Source: Escherichia coli | GTDB lineage: Bacteria > Pseudomonadota > Gammaproteobacteria > Enterobacterales > Enterobacteriaceae | Length of the DNA: 64,000 bases | Direction: 5' to 3' (one strand) | Assembly: GCF_030013205.1 (NCBI RefSeq) | Contig: NZ_CP122648.1 | Shown: in pieces, positions 54,727-56,988 of the stretch | How positions within the stretch are numbered: position 1 is the stretch's first letter | Layout of the letters: each line of letters starts with the position of its first letter | Notes under the pieces: generated by a model | What the model was told of the DNA's origin: nothing | Seen by the model: only the letters and a program-made list of their open reading frames with translations | Databases searched by the model: none | Made by a program: the position numbers and the translations under genes

Positions 54727-55433
54727 TGATTTTGCCATTCCGGAGGATTTTCATCATTCTTGTTCTAATTTTTAATTCATTACCCATCTTTTCTTCAAAA
54801 ATCTTAATGACATAACCCGGAAGTTTTTTTACAATTTCATTTGTTTTTTCTTCATTACCATAAACATATCCTAACTCATTAAGATACAGCTGTTCGCCCT
54901 CATACTTCTTAATTAATTGATAGAAGTACCACTTCGCAAAATCAGGTTGCTTCATGAAAAAATCCTTCAAAAAAATATCATTTACTAAAATACTGACAGG
55001 CACTTCATTAAATAGCAACTTAACATCATCAAATAACCTTAGTATTAAGCGTGATTTTTCTTGATTGCTTAAGTTAAAATTATTGACATATACAACCAAC
55101 TTCTCCCAAATCAATTCCTGTAACTCAGGGCTGTTTTTATAGGGTTCTTTATTGAGGTTGAAAAATAATGTCTCAGCTATTTTAGACTGATCGCAGTTAA
55201 AATCAATATGATCGATCACGGAGCGGGCATGCTTTATCGTTATAGTATCATCAGAATATTGCATACTTTGATTAAAACACCACTCCAGAATTTTTACATC
55301 ATTAATATATGGCAATTTTAAAAAAGTCTTCAACATCGAATCGATGACCTTTTCGAGATTAACTTTTGCATCATCTAAGGAATCAATAAGAATATTAGAC
55401 AGGTTAATTTTGATGTTATTAATTTCATCATTA
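54701..55433 (-). pseudogene. yjgL: yjgL-like gene, C-terminal portion (downstream of the IS1 insertion)
   Basis: AT-rich ORF (track 54701-55447) whose 5' end runs into the IS1 terminus; position between argI and tabA. Confidence 0.6.
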
Positions 55434-55448
55434 GGTAATGACTCCAAC

Positions 55449-55952
55449 TTACTGATAGTGTTTTATGTTCAGATAATGCCCGATGACCTTGTCATGCAGC
55501 TCCACCGATTTTGAGAACGACAGTGACTTCCGTCCCAGCCTTGCCAGATGTTGTCTCAGATTCAGGTTATGCCGCTCAATGCGCTGAGTATAACGCTTGC
55601 TGATAACGTGCAGCTTTCCCTTCAGGCGTGATTCATACAGCGGCCAGCCATCCGTCATCCATACCACGACCTCAAAGGCCGACAGCAGGCTCAGAAGACG
55701 CTCCAGTGTGGCCAGAGTGCGTTCACCGAAGACGTGCGCCACAACCGTCCTCCGCATCCTGTCATACGCGTAAAACAGCCAGCGCTGACGTGATTTAGCA
55801 CCGACGTAGCCCCACTGTTCGTCCATTTCAGCGCAGACAATCACATCACTGCCCGGTTGTATGCGCGAGGTTACCGACTGCGGCCTGAGTTTTTTAAGTG
55901 GCGGAAAATCGTGTTGAGGCCAACGCCAATAATGCGTGCACTGGCGCGACAT
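55449..55952 (-). CDS. insB: IS1 InsB (167 aa)
   Basis: [64 protein letters not shown]... Confidence 0.9.
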
Positions 55953-56146
55953 CCGACGCCATTCATGGCCATATCAATGATTTTCTGGTGCGTACCGGGC
56001 TGAGAGGCGGCGTAAGTGAACTGTAGTTGCCATGTTTTACGGCAGTGAGAGCAGAGATAGCGCTGATGTCCGGCGGTGCTTTTGCCGTTACGCACCACCC
56101 CGTCAGTAGCTGAACAGGAGGGACAGCTGATAGAAACAGAAGCCAC
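55871..56146 (-). CDS. insA: IS1 InsA (91 aa)
   Basis: [91 protein letters not shown]. Confidence 0.9.
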
Positions 56147-56201
56147 TGGAGCACCTCAAAAACACCATCATACACTAAATCAGTAAGTTGGCAGCATCAC
56201 C

Positions 56202-56988
56202 CATCATTACCTTCTGTACCACTAGCAATTCTGGTATCATGTAACGCTTTCAGATCATTTATTTCTTCAAGTATACCACCTTCGCCTAGTAAGTATGGAA
56301 TCGTGTCATCACATACATGAGGCATTAATAGCAGATGTTCTTTCTTTATTTTTTCTAATGTACTGGCTAATGGCTTTTCTAATAACTCGTTATAATCAAT
56401 TGCGTCCTTCCAGTTCAACTGATGATTATTTAATAGAAGCGCCATATTCTTGTTAGCTTCGCGTTGGTAACACGCCAGAACCTTGTTAGTAATCAGATGT
56501 AATGAACTATCATCTTTTCTTTCAAAAGACTTACCTTCATAACGAAAACTCAAAAAATCAGATTGTGGAAATATAATGGCTGTATGTCCTTGACGAGTCC
56601 CCATAGTAGTGGTAGTAGAAAGTGAAATTTCTATAATCACCTTAGATGAATCCGCACGCTCACCTTCAGGATTATTCATAACAAAATTCATTATTTCACT
56701 GCCATCATTATTTTTGATATAAGATGAGGACTCAATATGAGCCATCATATTTCTACCCGCTTCGTTGGAGCGTTTGCTAAAATCCACATAACCCAGGGTA
56801 AATATTTTTGCCAAAAACTCCAAAAATGCTCCAGGAGATAGAATATTCCTTCTGCTATCCTGCCCCTCGGCATTACGAGCAAAATCATTCATTCCCACAC
56901 ACCAGGTATTTAAGACTTCATTTTTTGGTTTAACATTGTCGGCTGATGCCATGTGTTGATAACAATTCAAATCTGATATTTTTGCCAT
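56202..56988 (-). pseudogene. yjgL: yjgL-like gene, N-terminal portion (upstream of the IS1 insertion)
   Basis: ATG at 56988 with SD AAGGAG; MAKISDLNCYQHMASADNVKPKNEVLNTW...; frame terminates 3 codons into IS1. Confidence 0.6.

Follow-up and report, generated by a model that had tools for sequence, protein, structure and literature searches.

A stretch of 64,000 nucleotides of Escherichia coli DNA (assembly GCF_030013205.1, contig NZ_CP122648.1), referred to here as the window, carries a complete copy of the insertion sequence IS1 inside yjgL, a gene also named icaR (PMC9241512, PMC9769918). We propose, with a probability of about 95%, that an active IS1 variant of pig-associated E. coli made a simple, recent and most likely neutral insertion in this gene. 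The insertion itself is confirmed, and nothing that we found contradicts it. It is of a kind already known, as it is visible in a public annotated genome and the recurrent disruption of yjgL by insertion sequence (IS) elements has been published. It represents a clean, textbook IS1 transposition with an empty-site control, and brings no new mechanism or gene function.

The 8-mer CATCATTA is found on both sides of the element, at 55426-55433 on the left and at 56202-56209 on the right. A duplication of 9 bp is ruled out, the bases that precede the two copies being T and C and those that follow them G and C. Comparisons were made with a search set of 5426 complete E. coli genomes. Strain K_EC180 (NZ_CP062203; pig, Korea) matches positions 54541-57110 of the window at 100% identity except for one gap of 776 bp (55426-56201), and at this empty site CATCATTA is present as a single copy. 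Since the gap equals IS1 plus one copy of the repeat, the match between the flanking 8-mers is not due to chance. When 49 kb was compared with the same strain, identity was 99.92% across 41 kb of left flank and 100% across 7.8 kb of right flank, and the subject stretch common to the two alignments was exactly the 8-bp target. The same two-piece BLAST match was obtained with strain ETEC1748 (1,794 bp, 100% identity). The initial annotation of this region had read the identical flanking 8-mers as a target duplication and had named strains with an uninterrupted gene as the comparison to make; the duplication holds, K_EC180, with its empty site, lacks exactly IS1 and 8 bp, and every coordinate that it gave was recovered by direct reading of the sequence and by script.

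IS1 occupies positions 55434-56201 (768 bp, read from the sequence and checked by script), with the transposase encoded on the minus strand and thus in the same direction as yjgL. The right inverted repeat (IRR), GGTAATGACTCCAACTTACTGAT, lies at 55434-55456, and the left inverted repeat (IRL), whose reverse complement is GGTGATGCTGCCAACTTACTGAT, at 56179-56201. These terminal repeats are imperfect and agree at 19 of 23 positions; ends of about 23 bp and a length of 768 bp are those of the IS1 family. On the minus strand, insA (55871-56146, GTG start) encodes 91 amino acids (aa) with the Pfam domains Zn_ribbon_InsA (3e-21) and HTH_Tnp_IS1 (4e-28), and the insB' frame (55449-55952) is an open reading frame (ORF) of 167 aa in which the Pfam domain DDE_Tnp_IS1 (PF03400) is matched over model positions 1-131 of 131 (E = 1e-74). 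The A6C programmed -1 frameshift motif, TTAAAAAAC, is located at 55889-55897 on the same strand. A -1 shift at this motif, which we built in silico, fuses insA and insB' into an InsAB' transposase of 232 aa (55449-56146). The NCBIfam model transpos_IS1 (NF033558) scored 148 bits, where the cut-off for an IS1 transposase is 100, and the Prokaryotic Genome Annotation Pipeline (PGAP) labels the identical copy in strain ETEC4079 'IS1 family transposase, programmed frameshift'. The earlier description of a complete 768-bp IS1 at this position is therefore upheld by its ends, by its Pfam and NCBIfam domains and by the 232-aa InsAB'. A sigma-70-like match was detected on the minus strand at 56194-56167, just inside IRL, which agrees with the known location of the insA promoter in IRL. 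The GC content of IS1 is 53%, and that of the interrupted gene is 29% in its 3' part and 36% in its 5' part.

In these properties the element resembles IS1A and IS1B of E. coli K-12 and its relatives, which likewise duplicate 8 bp of an AT-rich target and have 768 bp, ends of about 23 bp that start with GGT(A/G)ATG, a transposase with a DDE domain, and insA and insB' joined through a -1 shift at A6C. It is nevertheless a sequence variant: the copies of IS1A/IS1B type at other yjgL insertion sites share only 93.5% identity with it.

Removal of IS1 and one copy of the repeat restores a continuous, in-frame ORF of 503 aa. It lies between tabA (yjgK) and argI, as yjgL does in K-12, and is transcribed in the same direction as tabA. 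Identity to the K-12 YjgL protein (604 aa) is 81% for the N-terminal 183 aa and 62% for the C-terminal 321 aa, and the alignment runs ungapped through the junction (...GTEGND/EINNIK..., with the slash at the junction, against ...KVGNNEINDIK... in K-12). That the two halves are in frame and belong to one gene, as had been annotated from the sequence, is thus established by a continuous YjgL homologue; the outcome which that annotation named as a refutation, joined parts that fail to make up one homologue, did not occur. The 5' part is now a 263-aa ORF on the minus strand (56197-56988, of which 56202-56988 is derived from yjgL), and the 3' part, also on the minus strand, extends over 54701-55433 and is 62% identical to residues 258-575 of K-12 YjgL. 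A block of LNNxQx repeats in the K-12 protein (about residues 184-257, some 74 residues) is absent from the allele in the window; in the sequence of the K-12 yjgL locus this block is located at about 3990-4210. Across E. coli, yjgL alleles have nucleotide identities of 100% down to less than 87%, and a frameshift is flagged in many of them.

At its 3' end, this allele of yjgL was short before the arrival of IS1. An AT-rich, variable tandem repeat with a unit of 8 bp (TTCATATA/ATATATTY, about 6 copies, 54677-54724) holds the stop codon of the allele, an in-frame TGA situated 36 codons before the ancestral stop. The repeat number differs in steps of 8 bp among near-identical alleles (at least 98.5% identity), from 4 to 7 aligned units, and the end of the ORF stays constant at 503 aa despite this variation. 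Past the internal TGA, a remnant of the ancestral C-terminus (54593-54700, minus strand) can be read in frame and finishes with NEQLGKLNPPENLRIAIEKFGWKKKTITA and a stop codon; the pseudogene coding sequence (pseudo-CDS) that PGAP assigns in K_EC180 reaches the end of this remnant. The 8-bp repeat was also seen to shift the frame of the ancestral C-terminus. Upstream of the gene, the region with the promoter and the 5' untranslated sequence (56989-57110, minus strand, between tabA and yjgL) is untouched by IS1; of about 122 positions aligned with K-12, 4 are different. A scan of 54450-57200 for promoters and terminators gave counts that were not above those of shuffled sequence.

The distribution of the insertion points to a single clone. 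Among the 5426 genomes, the exact insertion, with both site and IS1 variant the same, was found in only one other, that of ETEC4079 (pig, Belgium), where a 100% identical IS1 occupies the identical site. Over 54541-57110 (2,570 bp) the sole difference between ETEC4079 and the window is one extra unit of the 8-bp repeat near 54702, and bases 1-49310 of the window are 100% identical to that strain. The host is a porcine clone of enterotoxigenic E. coli (ETEC), its sequence here being essentially identical to that of ETEC4079. The yjgL allele of the window (at least 99% identity) was present in 159 genomes, of which about 158 have an empty site. Because near-identical strains retain the empty site and only ETEC4079 shares the insertion, the event is recent and confined to one clone; the initial annotation had called it simple and recent, and the empty-site strains together with the single other carrier agree with that view. 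The insertion could serve as a clonal marker of one porcine ETEC lineage.

The source of the element may also be sought among porcine strains. The IS1 variant is uncommon among E. coli IS1 copies: of 9595 records with IS1, only 150 include a copy at least 99% identical to it. All of the 25 listed records, which have an IS1 of 100% identity, were chromosomes or plasmids of pig-associated E. coli (ETEC or edema disease E. coli, EDEC), and the strains holding such copies include UMNF18, O139:H1, O141:H4, several ETEC strains and K_EC180 itself. Judged by sequence identity, the copies in K_EC180 and in the porcine ETEC/EDEC replicons are available donors. Signs of transposition activity are indirect, namely identical copies at many sites in related genomes and the empty site in a sister strain. 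We suggest that InsAB', produced through the -1 frameshift at the A6C site, would have cut CATCATTA in its AT-rich target with a stagger of 8 bp, and that gap repair would then have duplicated these 8 bp, as expected from the known behaviour of the IS1 family. The insertion would carry further the decay of a gene repeatedly struck by IS elements.

The break in the 503-aa ORF falls after codon 262, with IS1 oriented as yjgL is. The last Gly codon of the 263-aa fragment and its TGA stop span the junction with IRL, and the 3' half of the gene is separated from its promoter and start codon. The claim of the initial annotation that the gene was inactivated stands only in part. The ORF is indeed split, but the allele already ended 36 codons early and icaR, which has been termed a fossil gene, is reported as silent in E. 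coli that lacks MxiE and IpgC (PMC9241512). With an allele shortened beforehand and a gene silent without MxiE/IpgC, the functional loss caused by the insertion was probably small or nil, and the reported silence and prior shortening make selective neutrality the most likely outcome. Polar effects on neighbouring genes are unlikely, since argI is transcribed convergently and tabA is the upstream neighbour.

IcaR is a type III secretion substrate encoded by a horizontally acquired gene (PMC9241512, PMC9769918). The icaR genes of K-12 and O157:H7 are switched on only when MxiE and IpgC are supplied, and IS elements have repeatedly disrupted the gene in Shigella and in some strains of E. coli (PMC9241512). 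An IS shortens the IcaR of Shigella flexneri to a product of about 27 kDa, which is stable and is secreted, and the type III secretion signal, established for the Shigella protein, resides in the first 20 residues (PMC9241512). In Pfam, YjgL matched only the SopA central domain, and this below threshold (E = 7e-4; 20.5 bits, the cut-off being 27), a resemblance on which the icaR paper also remarks (PMC9241512), and NCBIfam, PADLOC and a sequence search of the PDB gave nothing credible on YjgL function. No sign of MxiE or IpgC was seen in the window. The present case resembles the truncated icaR of S. flexneri in that the same gene is hit at the same chromosomal position by an IS in the coding sequence, leaving an N-terminal fragment that retains the first 20 residues and, at 263 aa, is similar in size to the 27-kDa product. 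It differs in that the window holds a clean insertion with the 3' half kept, whereas in Shigella a large deletion has removed 3' sequence; in that the host is an E. coli of porcine ETEC type; and in that the event is independent and at another position. It adds a data point to the published view that yjgL/icaR is a relic of a type III secretion system, in decay and prone to IS hits.

How often IS1 strikes this gene was determined across the same genomes. IS1 was found in or immediately next to yjgL in about 83 of the 5426, in the orientation of the window in 28 (ETEC4079 and 27 others) and in the opposite orientation in 55. The search joins pieces on the same strand, so the first query recovered one orientation and a query with the IS flipped gave the other 55. 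Sixteen loci were mapped, 14 with IS1 in yjgL or its promoter and two with IS1 in tabA, which yielded at least 11 distinct IS1 sites between the promoter and the very 3' end of yjgL. Target duplications were present in 14 of these 16 insertions, seven of 8 bp and seven of 9 bp. IS1 generates target duplications of 8-9 bp and prefers AT-rich targets. IS903B and ISKpn26 were likewise observed in the yjgL locus. Insertions in the O104:H4 outbreak lineage, the YJ3/NDM2 clade and the ST131 strain 4224 resemble that of the window, with IS1 inside yjgL and duplications of 8 or 9 bp, and differ from it in position, IS1 variant and yjgL allele.

Several of the mapped loci have features of their own. 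In RMDEC332 (locus L005, 628-1395) and ET479 (L014, 556-1322), IS1 occupies the identical position of yjgL, equivalent to about 54883 of the window, with the same 9-bp duplication, CTCATTAAG. The IS1 copies are different variants, 93.5% and 96.1% identical to that of the window, and the yjgL alleles of the two strains also differ, which suggests independent hits on one nucleotide position. In B1S11 (L012, 1141-1908) an IS1A-type element is inserted some 5-10 bp from the insertion point in the window (equivalent to about 56214), with a 9-bp duplication, GTCAGTAGC. The IS1 of strain 11 (L018, 1374-2141) shares its right junction with the insertion of the YJ3 clade (L007, 1658-2425), has no target duplication, and is accompanied on the other side by the loss of about 284 bp of yjgL; this structure looks like an IS1-mediated adjacent deletion. 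In AR436 (L016, 2359-3427), IS1B lies in tabA without a target duplication and beside the chloramphenicol acetyltransferase gene catA1, which suggests that a Tn9-like resistance segment was inserted next to yjgL.

As a control, mgtA (52% GC) was searched with a segment of equal length and the same query design in one orientation, and no genome with IS1 was found. IS1 thus hits yjgL, or is retained there, far more often than in a conserved gene of normal composition. That yjgL/icaR is a true landing hotspot for IS1, and not merely a tolerated target, by way of AT-rich and probably H-NS-bound DNA, is a tentative idea to which we give somewhat less than even odds. The counts behind it are the roughly 83 genomes with IS1, the 11 or more sites, the nucleotide position shared by two IS1 variants, the B1S11 insertion close by and the absence of IS1 from the mgtA control. 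Were it true, yjgL would offer a natural system for the study of IS1 target choice.

Of the other ways to account for the insertion, selection survives best, although we consider it improbable. It would hold that silencing or truncation of yjgL/icaR is advantageous, or that the 263-aa N-terminal fragment is itself functional. The fragment keeps the secretion signal and a segment predicted to bind DNA, and it is close in size to the truncated S. flexneri protein, which is stable and secreted; IS hits on the gene recur in E. coli and Shigella, in our census as in the literature, and negative selection in Shigella has been proposed as possible by the authors of the icaR study (PMC9241512). Against this, the spread of insertion sites, from promoter to far 3' end, fits lost constraint better than one chosen truncation, and E. 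coli without MxiE/IpgC is reported to keep the gene silent (PMC9241512). The insertion is shared by just one other genome of the 5426, and about 158 genomes with the same allele retain the empty site.

Three points qualify the account that we prefer, and none of them concerns the insertion itself. PGAP is inconsistent on the uninterrupted copy, which is called a pseudogene ('internal stop') in K_EC180 and a valid 503-aa coding sequence (WP_001074121.1) in strain 12089, so that the 503-aa allele may or may not have been intact before the IS1 hit. A search for the MxiE box, with a consensus, GTATCGTTTTTTTANAG, and up to 3 mismatches, gave 0 matches in the window, the upstream region being nearly identical to that of K-12, whose gene responds to MxiE/IpgC (PMC9241512). 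Finally, the excess of IS1 at yjgL is measured against the single mgtA control and could reflect either target preference or relaxed selection.

A more complex IS1-mediated rearrangement, such as an adjacent deletion, an inversion between copies, a cointegrate remnant or a composite transposon, is very unlikely. Such events have occurred elsewhere at this locus, in strain 11 and AR436, but in the window the flanking 8-mers are identical, a search with the 30-bp ends of the element found no second IS1, and the empty-site strain differs by exactly IS1 and 8 bp with nothing lost or inverted, which effectively refutes this alternative. It is just as improbable that an IS1 copy was wrongly placed in yjgL during assembly, for although IS1 is a multi-copy repeat of a kind prone to misassembly (about 20 places per genome in this lineage), a misjoin is not expected to yield an exact target duplication, and the same insertion is present in the complete assembly of ETEC4079, whose difference of one 8-bp unit in 2,570 bp suggests that it was sequenced separately.

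Other features of the window were noted by transfer of the ETEC4079 annotation. A large island (about 9700-40380) adjoins tRNA-Leu(CAA) (40295-40379, minus strand), with an integrase alongside. It contains fecIRABCDE, fragments of IS2, IS30, IS3 and IS66, and genes for an AbiJ-NTD4 protein, an HNH endonuclease, an antirestriction protein and a truncated phosphorothioated-DNA-binding restriction endonuclease. Positions 1-8430 hold the type 1 fimbrial operon, from fimH to fimB, and within it the invertase genes fimB and fimE flank the fim switch region.
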